From the NCBI GenBank assembly GCA_000146465.1, contig CP001949.1: a DNA stretch of 64,000 bases; one strand, given 5' to 3'. Within the stretch, counting starts at the first letter, position 1. Every line of letters begins with the position of its first letter. The notes under the pieces are model-generated. The model had not been told where the DNA came from. It saw only the letters and a list, made by a program, of their open reading frames with translations, and ran no database searches. Position numbers and translations under genes: made by a program. Positions 14,701-59,698 of the stretch are shown here, piece after piece.

Positions 14701-14973
14701 TCACAAGTTTTGCTGGAGTTCCATTTCACCTTTCTCTGGCTTACTGAGAATTTCTATATCCATAACAAAATCTCCCCTGGCCATCACCAGCCCCAAGACT
14801 CTACGTCTAGGCTCTTTGCTACCTCTTGCATTCCGGAATTCCTCGCTGTCATCAAGAACTACATTTACATCCTCGTCAACAGATAGCATGGTTCCCTCCA
14901 TCCATCTCCCATCCTTCATTTTAACCTTTACTCTATAGTTCACGTACTTTCCCAAACTCAGACCCATGGGCAA
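14701..14973 (-). CDS. Sm protein (SmB-like small nuclear ribonucleoprotein)
   Basis: Sm1/Sm2 motifs: YVNYRVKVKMKDGRWMEGTMLSVDEDVNVVLDDSEEF ... RRVLGLVMARGDFVMDI, closely matching SmB (RMRVTLQDGR..FDKHMNLILCDCDEF..RVLGLVLLRGENLVSM). Confidence 0.8.
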   Translation of the reverse strand: MPMGLSLGKYVNYRVKVKMKDGRWMEGTMLSVDEDVNVVLDDSEEFRNARGSKEPRRRVLGLVMARGDFVMDIEILSKPEKGEMELQQNL

Positions 14974-15003: not shown

Positions 15004-16695
15004 TCACATTTTATTCAAAGGTGTAGCTCCAAGGATTTTTAGTCCGTTATGAAGAACGATCCTTGCAGAAGACAGAACAAGGAGTCGAGCTCTGGCAAGT
15101 TCCTTCTCCACACCTAGAACCTTTAGGCTATTGATTGCGACATTGACGCAGCTAGCAAGATCTTGAAGATATGTGACGATTCTCGAAGGCTCGTAGTCGT
15201 CCAGACACTTTTCAACAGCATGCTCAAACCACAGGAGCTTGTAGACAAGATTGAAAACCTCTGGAACATGAATAAGGCTAAAGTCGATCGTGTTGATATC
15301 GCTGTAGTCAACATCGCTGTTCCTGGATTCGATGCTCTTCAGTCTGCAATGAGCATACTGCAAGTACGGCCCTGTTCCAGAGGTGTTTCTTGCCCTCTTT
15401 TCAATGTCAAACTCATATCCCTTAACTCTTCTAGCAGTAAAATCCATTACTAGAAGTGTTGATATGGCAAGGACTTCGGCAGTCTGGTCAATCTCGTCCA
15501 TTGTAAACGAGTTCTTGGTACTATCCGACATCATGACCTTCTTCATGACACTTGTAGATTCTTGGATTATGTCCTCGAGGAATTGGGCCTTTCCGGCTCT
15601 TGTAGACATCCCAGCAACCAATCCGTAGCTTACATGCAAGAATTTGCTTTCGTCGTGCCCAAGAATCCCAAGAATCTTGAAGAGATCTTCAAAGTGTTTG
15701 TTCTGCTCGGTCGACACAACGTAGATGATCTTTTCAGGAGAATATTTCTCAAGTCTTTCAATTGCGGCAGCAATATCTCTTGTTATGTAGAGTGTCGTTC
15801 CATCGTTCTTCATCACAAGTACCTTTCTGTTTTTTCCAAGATCAAATACCTTGGACCCGTCCTCATCTGTCTTGACTTCCTTATACGCCTCAACTATCTC
15901 TTTCCCCTTTTTGTTGTACAGGCTTTCTCCGGAATAGACATCGAATCTCACATTCAATCTTTCATAGAGACTCTTGTATTTTTCAACACTCAGCTCCCGG
16001 AATCTTTTCCAGAGATTCATGCACCATTCGTCGTTTTCCTCCTCCATCTTCCTGAAGATCTCTCTGGCCTCCAGATCAACTTCTGGGTTTTCCTTTGCAT
16101 CGGCGCTTATCTTCACATAGACATTGAACAGATGCTTGAGAGGGTCTTTCTCCAGCTCCTCTTCACTTCCATACTTACTGTATCCAAGGAGTACAAAGCC
16201 AAATTGTTTTCCCCAATCTCCAAAGTAGTTCATACTGACTGTCTCGTATCCAGATGCCTTCAGTAAGTTTACGATAAACTGGCCTAATATTGTTGTTCTC
16301 AGATGTCCTATGTGGAAAATCTTTGCAATGTTGGGGCTACTGTATTCCACCACCATTCGTTTGCCTTTTCCAATGCTATTGTTTCCAAATGTCTCCTTGT
16401 TACTTTGGATATAACCAAGAACATCCTTGAGTATTGCCTTCTTGTTAATGTCAAAGCACACCGAAGGTCCTCTTATGGCCAGGTTTTGAATCAGCTCGAT
16501 GCTTGCCTTTTCAAGCGCTTCATGAAGCTCCTTAGCATCTTCCTGTGGAGAGGACGATATTTTAATGAGGAAAAGAGTAACATTTGGCTTCTTTGGCTGG
16601 CAGGACTTTTCCATACATCTCTCGATTTCCTCTGGACTGAACTTTGAGACATTGGATACTTGTTCCACAACTTTTTTAAAAAGCTCGTTAAACAT
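15004..16695 (-). CDS. Arginyl-tRNA synthetase
   Basis: Class I HIGH motif (SSPNIAKIFHIGHLR). Overall length and domain order match ArgRS. Confidence 0.9.
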   Translation of the reverse strand: MFNELFKKVVEQVSNVSKFSPEEIERCMEKSCQPKKPNVTLFLIKISSSPQEDAKELHEALEKASIELIQNLAIRGPSVCFDINKKAILKDVLGYIQSNKETFGNNSIGKGKRMVVEYSSPNIAKIFHIGHLRTTILGQFIVNLLKASGYETVSMNYFGDWGKQFGFVLLGYSKYGSEEELEKDPLKHLFNVYVKISADAKENPEVDLEAREIFRKMEEENDEWCMNLWKRFRELSVEKYKSLYERLNVRFDVYSGESLYNKKGKEIVEAYKEVKTDEDGSKVFDLGKNRKVLVMKNDGTTLYITRDIAAAIERLEKYSPEKIIYVVSTEQNKHFEDLFKILGILGHDESKFLHVSYGLVAGMSTRAGKAQFLEDIIQESTSVMKKVMMSDSTKNSFTMDEIDQTAEVLAISTLLVMDFTARRVKGYEFDIEKRARNTSGTGPYLQYAHCRLKSIESRNSDVDYSDINTIDFSLIHVPEVFNLVYKLLWFEHAVEKCLDDYEPSRIVTYLQDLASCVNVAINSLKVLGVEKELARARLLVLSSARIVLHNGLKILGATPLNKM

Positions 16696-16774
16696 TTTGA
16701 AGGGTATATTCCTTCTGCTGGTTTTGCAGGGATGAAAAGGCTCTCAAAGCAAAGGAAAGAAAAAAGCATTAGAA

Positions 16775-16903
16775 AAAAAAGCCGAATCTACATCCGGCAA
16801 CCTCTCAAGTTATACATGTCGTCCTTACGCAGGGGCCATGCTAATCTTCTCTGTGTTGTTCCAAATCAATGGCGGTAGAAAACTACAACCCTTCCCTGCG
16901 AGA
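16775..16903 (-). ncRNA. U6: U6 spliceosomal snRNA
   Basis: The minus strand contains ACAGAGAAGATTAGCATGGCCCCTGCGTAAGGA, identical to the universally conserved U6 ACAGAGA/AGC box and 3' ISL region. A 5' stem-loop lies upstream. The gene ends in a run of at least 8 T (plus-strand A8 at 16773-16780), typical of a Pol III terminator. A TTAATTAATA TATA-like element sits about 30 nt upstream. Ends approximate. Confidence 0.85.
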
Positions 16904-17202
16904 TTTTTTTTATCCATTCAGTTTCCTCCCGTATTAATTAAGCGGCCATGTGTTTGGTGGATTTTTGTTCGGAGGCCGAAAGCAAAAAAAGAATTGGTAT
17001 GGAAAATAGGAGACGTGGCAAATTTCATTGGTAACTAGGTCATTAAAAGTTTCGGCCTGTCACATCACAAAGGGAGAAAGATGAAACAGGAAGCAGGCGA
17101 TTTTAGATTATGGGTTGAGAATGTTGTTTCAAGAACAGTATCCAAAGCAGGTATAAACGAGGTGTCTCTTCCAGACTCTGAATCAAAGATCTATGTGTTC
17201 CG

Positions 17203-17967
17203 ATGGACGGAAGGGTTTTATTCAATGTATCGGACCTTGCAGATATATTCAGGTGTTTTGGAACTTTTGTGAGTTCTTCTCAGATACATGAGTATATGGA
17301 GTCTGCCGGATATATAGAAAGGTTGGAGCAGCTCAAAGATTTCTTTGGAAAAGACTGTCTGGAGGTGGTATGCAGCAGTGTATTGAACAGCAAGCTTCTT
17401 GAACGTATAGAGTCTTCTGCAGATGGCGGAAAAGGATCCGGGCATCTGGATGATACAAGGATAGAATTCACCGGGTCCAAGTTCTCTTTTGGAGAATACA
17501 AGTTTGAGAGCCAGAAAGAAGATCAAGATCTTGACAGATTCCGTAATGTAAACGAACTATACCCTTTTAATTGTCAATGGACCGATAACATCATGGATGG
17601 AATACTTAAGAACATATATACAAGCGACGGAAAGAAGGCTGAAGACGGCTGCATGAAGAAAGGGTCCGACGTTGTAAGAGCAGGGAGTAGAGGAAGACAT
17701 ATGAAAGTCTCGGGAAGCCTAAAGGATCGCCCGTTTGTGTGTACATACAACGATTGTAAGAGAGCCTTCAAGAGATATGAGCATTTGAAGCGCCATAACC
17801 TGATGCATACTGGAGAAAGACCTCATAAATGCAGATTCCCCGGGTGCTCCAAAGCCTTTTCCAGATCAGACAACCTGTCCCAGCACTATAAAGTTCATAC
17901 CACAACAAGTGAGATACATGCCAAGAGCTATGAATCCTATAGATACTTGAATAAAGAGTTTAACTAG
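17203..17967 (+). CDS. C2H2 zinc-finger protein
   Basis: Two consecutive classical C2H2 fingers near the C-terminus (FVCTYNDCKRAFKRYEHLKRHNLMH, HKCRFPGCSKAFSRSDNLSQHYKVH). Confidence 0.7.
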   Translation: MDGRVLFNVSDLADIFRCFGTFVSSSQIHEYMESAGYIERLEQLKDFFGKDCLEVVCSSVLNSKLLERIESSADGGKGSGHLDDTRIEFTGSKFSFGEYKFESQKEDQDLDRFRNVNELYPFNCQWTDNIMDGILKNIYTSDGKKAEDGCMKKGSDVVRAGSRGRHMKVSGSLKDRPFVCTYNDCKRAFKRYEHLKRHNLMHTGERPHKCRFPGCSKAFSRSDNLSQHYKVHTTTSEIHAKSYESYRYLNKEFN

Positions 17968-17973
17968 AGAAGA

Positions 17974-18408
17974 TTATTTTTCCAGCTTGTCTTTAGAACC
18001 AAAAGCTGAAGTCGATGAGTTGACATGGTTCGCCTGCATTCGGAGCCTATTTATTTCATCTTTCATGGCTGATTCCTTCTTTAACTTCATGGATGTATCT
18101 TCTGCTTCTTCTTGGATGCCGGGCTCCTCCTCTACTTTTACACAACCATCTTCGGTGATATACACCCCATTCTTTGGATCGGTTTTAATGCTTAATATCT
18201 TACTGCATCCAGTGCATTTTATGTGGAAGCGATGGCTTTCTACCCCCAAGTAGTCCTTTCCCAATGCTATTTCCCTTGTGGCATTGTGTCTTTTATTTTT
18301 GTATATGTAGGCACCACACGATAGACACTTGATCGTGAATGGCGTTGCCAATCTTGTGGGCAGTCCTTTTGGCTTGGAGCTTTTCTTCTTGTTTAGAGCA
18401 CTCTTCAT
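17974..18408 (-). CDS. Splicing factor YJU2/CWC16 (CCDC94 family)
   Basis: TPFTIKCLSCGAYIYKNKRHNATREIALGKDYLGVESHRFHIKCTGCSKILSIKTDPKNGVYI aligns with the YJU2 zinc-binding core ([42 protein letters not shown]). Confidence 0.75.
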   Translation of the reverse strand: MKSALNKKKSSKPKGLPTRLATPFTIKCLSCGAYIYKNKRHNATREIALGKDYLGVESHRFHIKCTGCSKILSIKTDPKNGVYITEDGCVKVEEEPGIQEEAEDTSMKLKKESAMKDEINRLRMQANHVNSSTSAFGSKDKLEK

Positions 18409-57557: not shown

Positions 57558-57641
57558 TCTCCCAAGCTGGAGTCGAACCAGCGGCCATTCGATAACGGCA
57601 TACTTCTACAGTCGAATGCTCTACCACTGAGCTATTGGGAG
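57558..57641 (-). tRNA. tRNA-Tyr (anticodon GTA) with a 12-nt intron
   Basis: Reverse complement: CTCCCAA-TA-GCTC-AGTGGTA-GAGC-A-TTCGA-CTGTAG[AAGTATGCCGTT]A-TCGAA-TGGCC-GCTGG-TTCGACT-CCAGC-TTGGGAG-A. The intron lies after anticodon-loop position 37, at plus coordinates 57594-57605. Confidence 0.85.
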
Positions 57642-58117: not shown

Positions 58118-59087
58118 CCGGAATGCCCTTGTCCCTCTTTACCTTCAGTACATTCCGCTCTTTCCCTGCGGGGTAAAACAACTCCTTTAGCCCAGATCCG
58201 AAGTACCTGTAGTCCAAGACCGAGTAATACAGAAAAATCAGGTTTATAACTGCCTCGAAGTTATTCCTTATGATGAAGAGCCTAAAATTAAAAATGCTCA
58301 CTTACCTCCTCAGATGCCAATCCAGAGCGTCACTGTTCCTATGTCTCGAAACCTGGGATGTACAGTACGAAAGATTCAAGGCTGTTGCCATGATTAGAGA
58401 CATCCTTTGGCCCTCATTTTCTTCATTAGGCCTCATGAACATTAAGAAAAAGGTGATAACCTCGAGAATATGGTCAAGCACCATCAAGAAAGCCTCTAAA
58501 GAGTTTACAGTGTAGTATTTGATCCCCTCGATCTGAAGATATATCCCCTGGATGGCTGCTAGGATCATTAGAAACTTCGATGCATCGTACCGGGCCCTTG
58601 CTTTGTATGCAGCTTAAAATTATATGTGTCACTTACCTTTCAGCTTGCTGCTAACACCCCCCTGCTTAAAATAGTACCATTCAAACATGTCTCCATATTC
58701 CTTGCATACGAAGTACATCCTAATAAACTCTCCAACGCATAGTCCTAAATACAAAAGGGAAAAAGCCACAACTCCCAGGTTGTGATTGGTAAACTTGAAA
58801 ACGCTTTCCACAATCACAGATGCCTCCAGAGAAGCTATGAGAATGATAACCCAGTATGCCTTGCACTGCTCAAGGTTTTTTCTCGACATTGCATTTTCAA
58901 GATAGATAAACATGTAGACGTTTGTAACACATATGGACAGACACATCGATCGGATTATGACCATTTGCTTACCGATAATGTTTTTCCGGTAAAATCCAAT
59001 TCCGATGACTAATATCCTCAAAAGCAAGTACATAAACGAAACCTTCCTCCCTTTGTTCAACAGTTCGTCCTTCCCCAACAAGTCCAT
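58110..59087 (-). CDS. Spliced gene for a polytopic membrane protein: three exons (about 59087-58637, 58612-58306, 58281-58110) separated by two 24-nt introns
   Basis: Track ORFs 58629-59087, 58302-58568 and 58110-58301 are all in the same frame. Each separating stop (TGA at 58629-31, TAA at 58302-04) lies inside a minus-strand GGTAAGTGA motif. Introns GTAAGTGACACATATAATTTTAAG (58636-58613) and GTAAGTGAGCATTTTTAATTTTAG (58305-58282) are both 24 nt, so removing them fuses a continuous ORF of about 317 aa with 6-7 TM helices. Confidence 0.65.
58282..58305 (-). other. Spliceosomal intron 2 (24 nt, GTAAGT...TTAATTTTAG) carrying the in-frame TAA
   Basis: Minus strand GGAG|GTAAGTGAGCATTTTTAATTTTAG|GCTCTT. 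Canonical 5' splice site, TTAAT branch-like element, TAG 3' splice site. Confidence 0.7.
58613..58636 (-). other. Spliceosomal intron 1 (24 nt, GTAAGT...TTTTAAG) carrying the in-frame TGA
   Basis: Minus strand AAAG|GTAAGTGACACATATAATTTTAAG|CTGCAT. The 5' splice site matches the consensus. Length and A/T-rich 3' end fit the constrained Encephalitozoon-type intron. Confidence 0.6.
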
Positions 59088-59266
59088 TCAATGGGTCTGT
59101 GCCATTTCAAAAAAAATATCATTTATCACAGGTTTAGATCCACTGATCTACTTAAATTATAAAATTTCAGAAGGCAATCTATCTCTAATTAGTTGGAATT
59201 CCCTGCTAATGCAATTCTGATAAATTAAATCATGCCTGTGTTATTGATCCGATCCGAGATAGCATC

Positions 59267-59692
59267 CTAGAACCCGTTCCTTGTGAAGACAATTTGGCCA
59301 TATGCTTTCTTCTGCACAGGTATAATGTCCCCTCTTGAGCTCATCAAAAGAATGGAATAGAATGTCCTTGCTCTTGTCCTTCTGCTTGTGCCAGCATACT
59401 CGTCGAAGTCTCCATTGCTCAGCAGGATGCTTGCCATGTCTTCGCTGGAAGTGCTGTTTGAAAAGTCCTCTCTACTCGAATGCCTAGACCAATTACGTGC
59501 TTTTTCTACAGAGTCAAAGGAAGACATCCCGGCATACAACATCCCAGTCCCCTGGATTGGAGGTCTTATCTTCTTAACTTCCCTGGTGATAAAGGCTTCT
59601 TCTTCAAACACCCGGGTTTCAGCCCTCTCTTCATGCTTGGATGTTCTTGAAGCTCCTGCTTTATTGATATTCAGTACTGTTGTGCTGTCCAC
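59267..59692 (-). CDS. Hypothetical Ser/Arg-rich ORF, same frame as 59699-60151
   Basis: Track start is a GTG. The first ATG is about 50 codons in. Low complexity. Coding status uncertain. Confidence 0.25.
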   Translation of the reverse strand: MDSTTVLNINKAGASRTSKHEERAETRVFEEEAFITREVKKIRPPIQGTGMLYAGMSSFDSVEKARNWSRHSSREDFSNSTSSEDMASILLSNGDFDEYAGTSRRTRARTFYSILLMSSRGDIIPVQKKAYGQIVFTRNGF

Positions 59693-59698
59693 TACATT

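Follow-up and report, generated by a model that had tools for sequence, protein, structure and literature searches.

A U6 small nuclear RNA (snRNA) gene lies on the minus strand of the sequence analysed here, which belongs to the microsporidian parasite Encephalitozoon intestinalis (a stretch of 64 kb, hereafter the window), between a zinc-finger gene and the gene coding for arginyl-tRNA synthetase (ArgRS). The window is gene-dense, essentially intron-free and has a G+C content of about 42%, which fits the genome of E. intestinalis. ArgRS is encoded by a 563-aa ORF (15004..16695, minus strand) whose product shares 100% identity with the ArgRS of E. intestinalis ATCC 50506 and 82-86% with its counterparts in E. 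hellem, E. romaleae and E. cuniculi.

The first-pass annotation had called attention to this intergenic region as being unusually long, i.e., about 500 bp. The statement holds as far as the distance between ORFs is concerned, since 507 bp separate the ArgRS start (16695) from the ATG at 17203, which makes this gap the third longest of the 61 existing between long ORFs (ATG-started ORFs of at least 110 aa), whose median is 70 bp. The real spacer, however, is shorter. The conserved N-terminus of the zinc-finger protein (MKQ...KIYVF, 41 residues) is encoded from position 17081 on the plus strand, in a frame other than that of the ATG at 17203, where the rest of the protein (MDGRVLFNV...) starts; the two frames meet at about 17195-17203, and the orthologous proteins are 281-299 aa long versus 254 aa for the ORF beginning at 17203. 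The figure of 507 bp is thus inflated, the evolutionarily non-coding spacer being about 385 bp long; the annotated spacers span 369-382 bp in the sister Encephalitozoon-type loci and 443 bp in two Ordospora species. The one-base frame disruption might correspond either to a true 5' truncation or frameshift in this strain, or to a one-base sequence or assembly error. The length of the spacer between the ArgRS and the zinc-finger genes is accounted for by the U6 gene.

The scan of the window with Rfam release 15 retrieved one match to the U6 family (RF00026), located at 16890..16775 on the minus strand and spanning the full model (positions 1-105 of 105), with a score of 66.5 bits (E = 1.4e-14) against a gathering score of 44. 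The first-pass annotation had proposed a U6 gene on this strand and had indicated an Infernal search with this family as the way to check it; the outcome of the search is clearly positive, and the full-length match is joined by the synteny and by the near-invariance of the RNA body (see below), so that the identity of the gene as U6 is demonstrated. Also the "perfect U6 core" described there was recovered, the 26-mer ACAGAGAAGATTAGCATGGCCCCTGC being found once in the window, at 16854..16829 on the minus strand. The gene follows the Rfam consensus base for base through ACAGAGAAGAUUAGCAUGGCCCCUGCG, and the sole notable insertion in the alignment to the model is one of 12 nt near the 3' end. When the whole window was scanned at permissive thresholds, the only matches besides U6 were four tRNAs and three sub-threshold matches to vertebrate lncRNAs, the latter being chance matches; no U4 or U2 gene was retrieved from the 64-kb window by the Rfam scans, the permissive one included. 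The features recognized in the U6 gene and upstream of it are reported in Table 1.

Table 1. Position of the U6 snRNA gene of E. intestinalis and of its elements in the window.
Feature	Position	Strand	Description or basis
TTAATTAATA	16932..16941	-	-50 to -41 from the conserved 5' end
TATA-like box ATAAAAAAAA	16904..16913	-	-22 to -13 from the first conserved G (16891)
U6 snRNA gene	16773..16891	-	RF00026 match and conserved 111-nt body
Conserved U6 RNA body	16891..16781 (111 nt), then T8 at 16780..16773	-	Nine-taxon alignment
GGG motif at the inferred transcription start	16889..16891	-	GGG/GGGG over the first three conserved positions in 9/9 taxa
5' stem-loop	16871..16890	-	7 pairs around one U.C mismatch, 4-nt loop
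ACAGAGA box	16848..16854	-	Exact match; invariant in nine Encephalitozoon/Ordospora-clade sequences
AGC catalytic triad	16840..16842	-	Alignment columns 52-54 invariant; aligns to the Rfam consensus AGC
Internal stem-loop (ISL)	16814..16841	-	C.A apposition and bulged C at 16821
Single-stranded CUUGAGAGG	16801..16809	-	Invariant in nine close taxa
Lineage-specific 3' stem-loop	16781..16798	-	6-7 pairs, GUAG-containing loop, directly before the U-tract
T8 run	16773..16780	-	Putative RNA polymerase III terminator, from which the 3' oligo-U tail would derive

The conservation of the locus was analysed by comparing the ArgRS loci of E. hellem, E. romaleae, E. cuniculi, Ordospora colligata, O. pajunii and three relatives represented by assemblies of sequencing runs. 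In all eight loci, a U6 match (62.5-66.1 bits) is located just upstream of ArgRS and on the same strand. The RNA body, which extends from the first conserved G to the last base of the 3' stem, has a length of 111 nt in all nine taxa, and the mean column identity over the gene is 94%, with columns 7-80 almost all invariant. The alignment of the whole spacer witnesses a conservation that jumps at an A-rich box, stays near-unchanged over the RNA body and drops after a short T-run. The same alignment, together with that obtained from Rfam, places the 5' end of the RNA at about 16891/16890; the start at 16903 given in the first-pass annotation is therefore about 12 nt too far upstream, and the transcript of about 125 nt that it expected is too long, the RNA being probably about 115-119 nt in length.

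The relative order of the genes (Yju2-like, zinc finger, U6, ArgRS and LSM) is maintained in five Encephalitozoon/Ordospora genomes and in one of the three relatives known from sequencing runs (L006); the other two are rearranged outside the U6-ArgRS pair. Outside this clade, a U6 match is found in Nosema granulosis, where the order zinc finger-U6-ArgRS is retained, and in Vairimorpha necatrix, where it is located about 3.6 kb upstream of ArgRS (L010 277-387, 52.8 bits). No U6 was found within the flanks examined of the ArgRS locus of Glugoides intestinalis; the absence of a match at the ArgRS locus of Vittaforma corneae is uninformative, the contig ending 98 bp upstream of ArgRS. The copy of V. 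necatrix reads ACUGAGA, versus ACAGAGA in all the other sequences, in the normally invariant box of the catalytic centre; it might be the functional gene, a second copy or the product of an error in the assembly.

Two of the neighbours of U6 carry Pfam domains linked to splicing: an LSM-domain gene (14701-14973, minus strand; Pfam E = 3.3e-15) and a Saf4/Yju2-domain gene (17974-18408, minus strand; Pfam E = 1.2e-29), both within about 2 kb of it. This arrangement is conserved across Encephalitozoon and Ordospora; their proximity to U6 may be the chance outcome of conserved synteny rather than a functional cluster.

The structure of the RNA was evaluated on the nine-sequence alignment, using as a control the same helices with their 3' partners slid by 1-3 columns. 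In the designated structure, 99% of the cells form standard pairs and the three helices are paired in 97-100% of the cells; when the partners are slid, the pairing falls to 29-47%. The 5' stem-loop, which is present both in the MFE fold and in the alifold consensus, has 96.8% of its cells paired and exhibits one-sided changes that retain the pairing (U-G to C-G and U-A to U-G). The 3' stem is paired in 100% of the cells, and three of its six pairs are changed on both sides, that is, by compensatory substitutions. All the nine designated pairs of the ISL can be formed in 100% of the cells of the nine sequences; these pairs never vary, so that they yield no covariation evidence for the ISL, and the invariance of the ISL and of most of the 5' stem neither supports nor contradicts the structure. 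The single-sequence fold is no stabler than that of the shuffled sequence (z = -0.42). Such a low single-sequence stability is common in U6, an RNA that acts while paired to U4 and U2. The hairpin upstream of the core and the T8 run downstream of it, both mentioned in the first-pass annotation, were found on the minus strand at 16890..16871 and 16780..16773, respectively.

The ACAGAGA box of U6 is responsible for the recognition of the 5' splice site and is part of the catalytic centre, and the AGC triad is catalytic. The segment running from the former to the latter (ACAGAGAAGAUUAGC, 16854..16840, minus strand) is equal to the Rfam consensus, has the canonical spacing and is invariant in the nine taxa. 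The bulged base of the ISL is C in all the 11 microsporidian sequences examined, versus a conserved U in the Rfam consensus; we take its position to be equivalent to U80 of yeast and U74 of human U6, the phosphate of which coordinates a catalytic metal. A review consulted on the significance of the bulged base contained nothing relevant. Downstream of the ISL, the UUGAGAG of the CUUGAGAGG region is retained in Nosema and Vairimorpha; on the basis of its position with respect to yeast and human U6, CUUGAGAGG might be the partner of U2 in the U2/U6 helix II.

Concerning the promoter, an A/T-rich box beginning at -20 to -24 is present in all nine taxa, with invariant columns in the spacer alignment, and in E. 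intestinalis it corresponds to ATAAAAAAAA at about -22. The first-pass annotation had proposed a different TATA-like box, TTAATTAATA, about 30 nt upstream of the RNA. This sequence does exist at 16941..16932, and the distance is right if counted from the start assumed there; however, it is 41-50 nt away from the real 5' end, and the promoter role is not confirmed, ATAAAAAAAA being the conserved box. The sequence TTAATTAATA is specific to E. intestinalis, being absent from all eight orthologous spacers, whose aligned positions are G/C-rich or unrelated; it is probably not the promoter element.

The internal and downstream elements of the yeast-type (SNR6) promoter were also searched for. None of the nine taxa has an A box (TRGYNNANNNG) within the gene body, and no B box (GWTCRANNC) was found between -300 and +400 in E. 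intestinalis and in seven other taxa; in Logan7 there are two matches to the B-box consensus, both of them upstream of U6. Hence the combination of an intragenic A box and a downstream B box was not observed, and an upstream TATA-like box is present. The absence of A and B boxes agrees with the description given for Encephalitozoon (PMC5499648).

At the 3' end, a T-run is present in every ortholog, its length being T3-T5 in all of them and T8 in E. intestinalis only, which suggests that the conserved terminator consists of about four Ts placed directly after the 3' stem. A scan for promoters and terminators of bacterial type yielded only a terminator-like site made up of the 3' stem and the T-run. 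Past the T-run, 77 bp remain before the start codon of ArgRS, so that the ArgRS promoter must be confined to these 77 bp between the U6 terminator and the ATG. In all nine taxa, this start codon is preceded, at a distance of about 8-12 nt, by a conserved CCC motif (CACCC or ACCC; window positions 16696-16712, minus strand in E. intestinalis), which matches the CCC/GGG-like motif reported near microsporidian transcription starts.

On the whole, the region 16773..16891 on the minus strand can be considered, with a probability of roughly 0.96, as the U6 spliceosomal RNA gene of E. intestinalis, and a probably functional one. What holds for the family, together with the RACE data published for E. 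cuniculi, suggests that the gene is transcribed by RNA polymerase III and acts in the spliceosome, and also where exactly the RNA would begin and end. According to this model, polymerase III would be recruited via the conserved upstream ATAAAAAAAA, in a gene in which neither an internal A box nor a downstream B box can be recognised; the transcription would be initiated at the conserved GGG near 16891 and would terminate in the T-run past the 3' stem, giving an oligo-U-tailed RNA of the length proposed above. The ACAGAGA box and the AGC triad, together with the ISL, would then form the catalytic core of the spliceosome, which excises the few introns that this reduced genome has retained.

The same sequence might in principle be a U6 pseudogene, i.e., a decaying relic neither expressed nor used. 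The departure of the ISL bulge from the consensus base would be in agreement with this idea. Nevertheless, the C bulge is common to all 11 microsporidian copies examined, and is thus a trait of the lineage and not a sign of decay. Moreover, the RNA body is almost invariant in nine taxa while the flanking spacer has freely diverged, the positions of the promoter box and of the terminator are conserved, and the compensatory changes keep the 3' stem paired, which points to a selection acting on the RNA. In addition, this is the sole U6 match in the window, and the E. cuniculi ortholog at the same locus has been validated by RACE (PMC5499648). For these reasons, a relic appears very improbable.

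Since the conserved block lies between two divergently transcribed genes, and the ArgRS start codon follows so closely, it might also be supposed that it consists mainly of cis-regulatory DNA serving ArgRS and the zinc-finger gene, and that its likeness to U6 is incidental. A full-length match to the covariance model with the E value reported above is not incidental, though, and the conservation coincides exactly with the RNA body, ending at its ends; in V. necatrix, the distance separating U6 from ArgRS indicates that the sequence is independent of this neighbour. A purely regulatory block is hence extremely unlikely, and hardly any weight can be given to the assignment of the RNA to U6atac, the counterpart of U6 in the minor spliceosome. 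U6atac belongs to the same Rfam clan and has the AGC and the ISL architecture in common with U6; nevertheless, the clan competition, which keeps the best of the overlapping matches, returns U6, well above the threshold, and the sequence matches exactly the U6 consensus from ACAGAGA to CCCCUGCG. Furthermore, the components of the minor spliceosome appear to be absent from microsporidia (PMC2396436).

The comparison of the U6 gene with better-known ones reveals different degrees of similarity. The E. cuniculi U6 (L003 2812-2916) is a syntenic ortholog, located upstream of ArgRS and on the same strand; its body is likewise 111 nt long, and no base differs between the two species in the region that runs from the 5' stem to the end of the ISL. 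The extra 3' stem-loop is also common to both genes, as are a TATA-like box at -22 and the GGG of the start. The two genes differ in the 5' end (AAGGG in E. intestinalis versus AGGGG in E. cuniculi), in a few substitutions of the 3' stem, which are compensatory or lead to wobble pairs, and in the terminator (T8 versus T4); the upstream TTAATTAATA is also lacking in E. cuniculi. The U6 genes of Nosema and Vairimorpha share the core, the C bulge and a TATAAAT at the equivalent upstream place, as well as the 3' stem-loop, which in N. granulosis and V. necatrix is kept with other base pairs and a conserved GUAG-containing loop; the sequence of their 5' stem-loop has diverged.

With yeast SNR6 and human RNU6, the E. 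intestinalis U6 has in common the 5' stem-loop, ACAGAGA, AGC and an ISL with the C.A apposition and a one-nucleotide bulge. A terminal U-tract and an upstream TATA element are likewise shared with the yeast and human genes. In contrast to them, the E. intestinalis RNA has an additional stem-loop just before the U-tract and a C instead of a U at the ISL bulge, and the gene lacks the A/B box consensus. In yeast and human U6 genes, the TATA element is typically located at roughly -30, whereas the E. intestinalis box, at about -22, is nearer to the putative start.

Although the first-pass annotation implied a novel gene, the U6 of Encephalitozoon was already known from Rfam and from published work (PMC2396436, PMC5499648). 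Davila Lopez et al. (2008) listed the U2 and U6 orthologues of E. cuniculi as already included in Rfam (PMC2396436), and, according to Belkorchia et al. (2017), U6 belongs to the ncRNAs that were already known in the four Encephalitozoon species; their 5'/3' RACE validated all 18 ncRNAs of E. cuniculi, U6 included (PMC5499648). The same authors reported that U4 and U6 exceed the length of their yeast and human counterparts through additional stems near the 3' end, described TATA-like boxes and, close to the start sites, a CCC/GGG motif, found no A/B boxes for U6, and proposed a TATA-only, TFIIIC-independent recruitment of polymerase III (PMC5499648). The E. intestinalis 3' stem-loop matches the "additional stem" and the GGG matches the CCC/GGG motif of that study, and all the observations made here on the E. 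intestinalis U6 agree with its description.

The U6 of Encephalitozoon is, therefore, an already known gene that belongs to a familiar kind, and it is no novelty. Its placement is useful for the annotation of a very small eukaryotic genome; the understanding of the system is unchanged, since all five major spliceosomal snRNAs, U6 among them, had previously been documented for Encephalitozoon. The modest additions are the fixed 111-nt body, the TATA-like box at about -22, the linkage of U6 and ArgRS across the clade and a covarying 3' stem reaching Nosema and Vairimorpha.

A more speculative reading, possible but rather doubtful, is that the stem-loop with the GUAG loop and the C bulge of the ISL, both found in all 11 copies examined, represent adaptations to a stripped-down microsporidian spliceosome; the gene might also be transcribed from a TATA-only, TFIIIC-independent polymerase III promoter. 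One option under this adaptation reading is that the 3' stem-loop could act as a binding platform replacing lost U6 snRNP assembly factors. Both ideas, i.e., the adaptation of U6 and the TATA-only promoter, have already been outlined by Belkorchia et al. (2017; PMC5499648), so that, if true, they would build on existing work without opening up a new field.

Other loci of the window deserve a brief mention. The tRNA at 57558-57641 (minus strand) is called Leu(tag) by ARAGORN; the Rfam alignment puts a 15-nt insertion in its anticodon loop, and the sequence reads ...UUCGA CU GUA G[AAGUAUGCCGUU]A UCGAA..., so that a tRNA-Tyr(GUA) with an intron of about 12-14 nt would fit better than a Leu tRNA. 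Two further long gaps were disclosed by the gap survey, at 58118-58628 (511 bp) and 59088-59698 (611 bp), neither of which gives a Rfam match, even at permissive thresholds. The former contains only ORFs of at most 88 aa, and the latter harbors a GTG-start ORF of 141 aa (59267..59692, minus strand); these gaps could host a small gene or a divergent snoRNA of the kind described for the genus.
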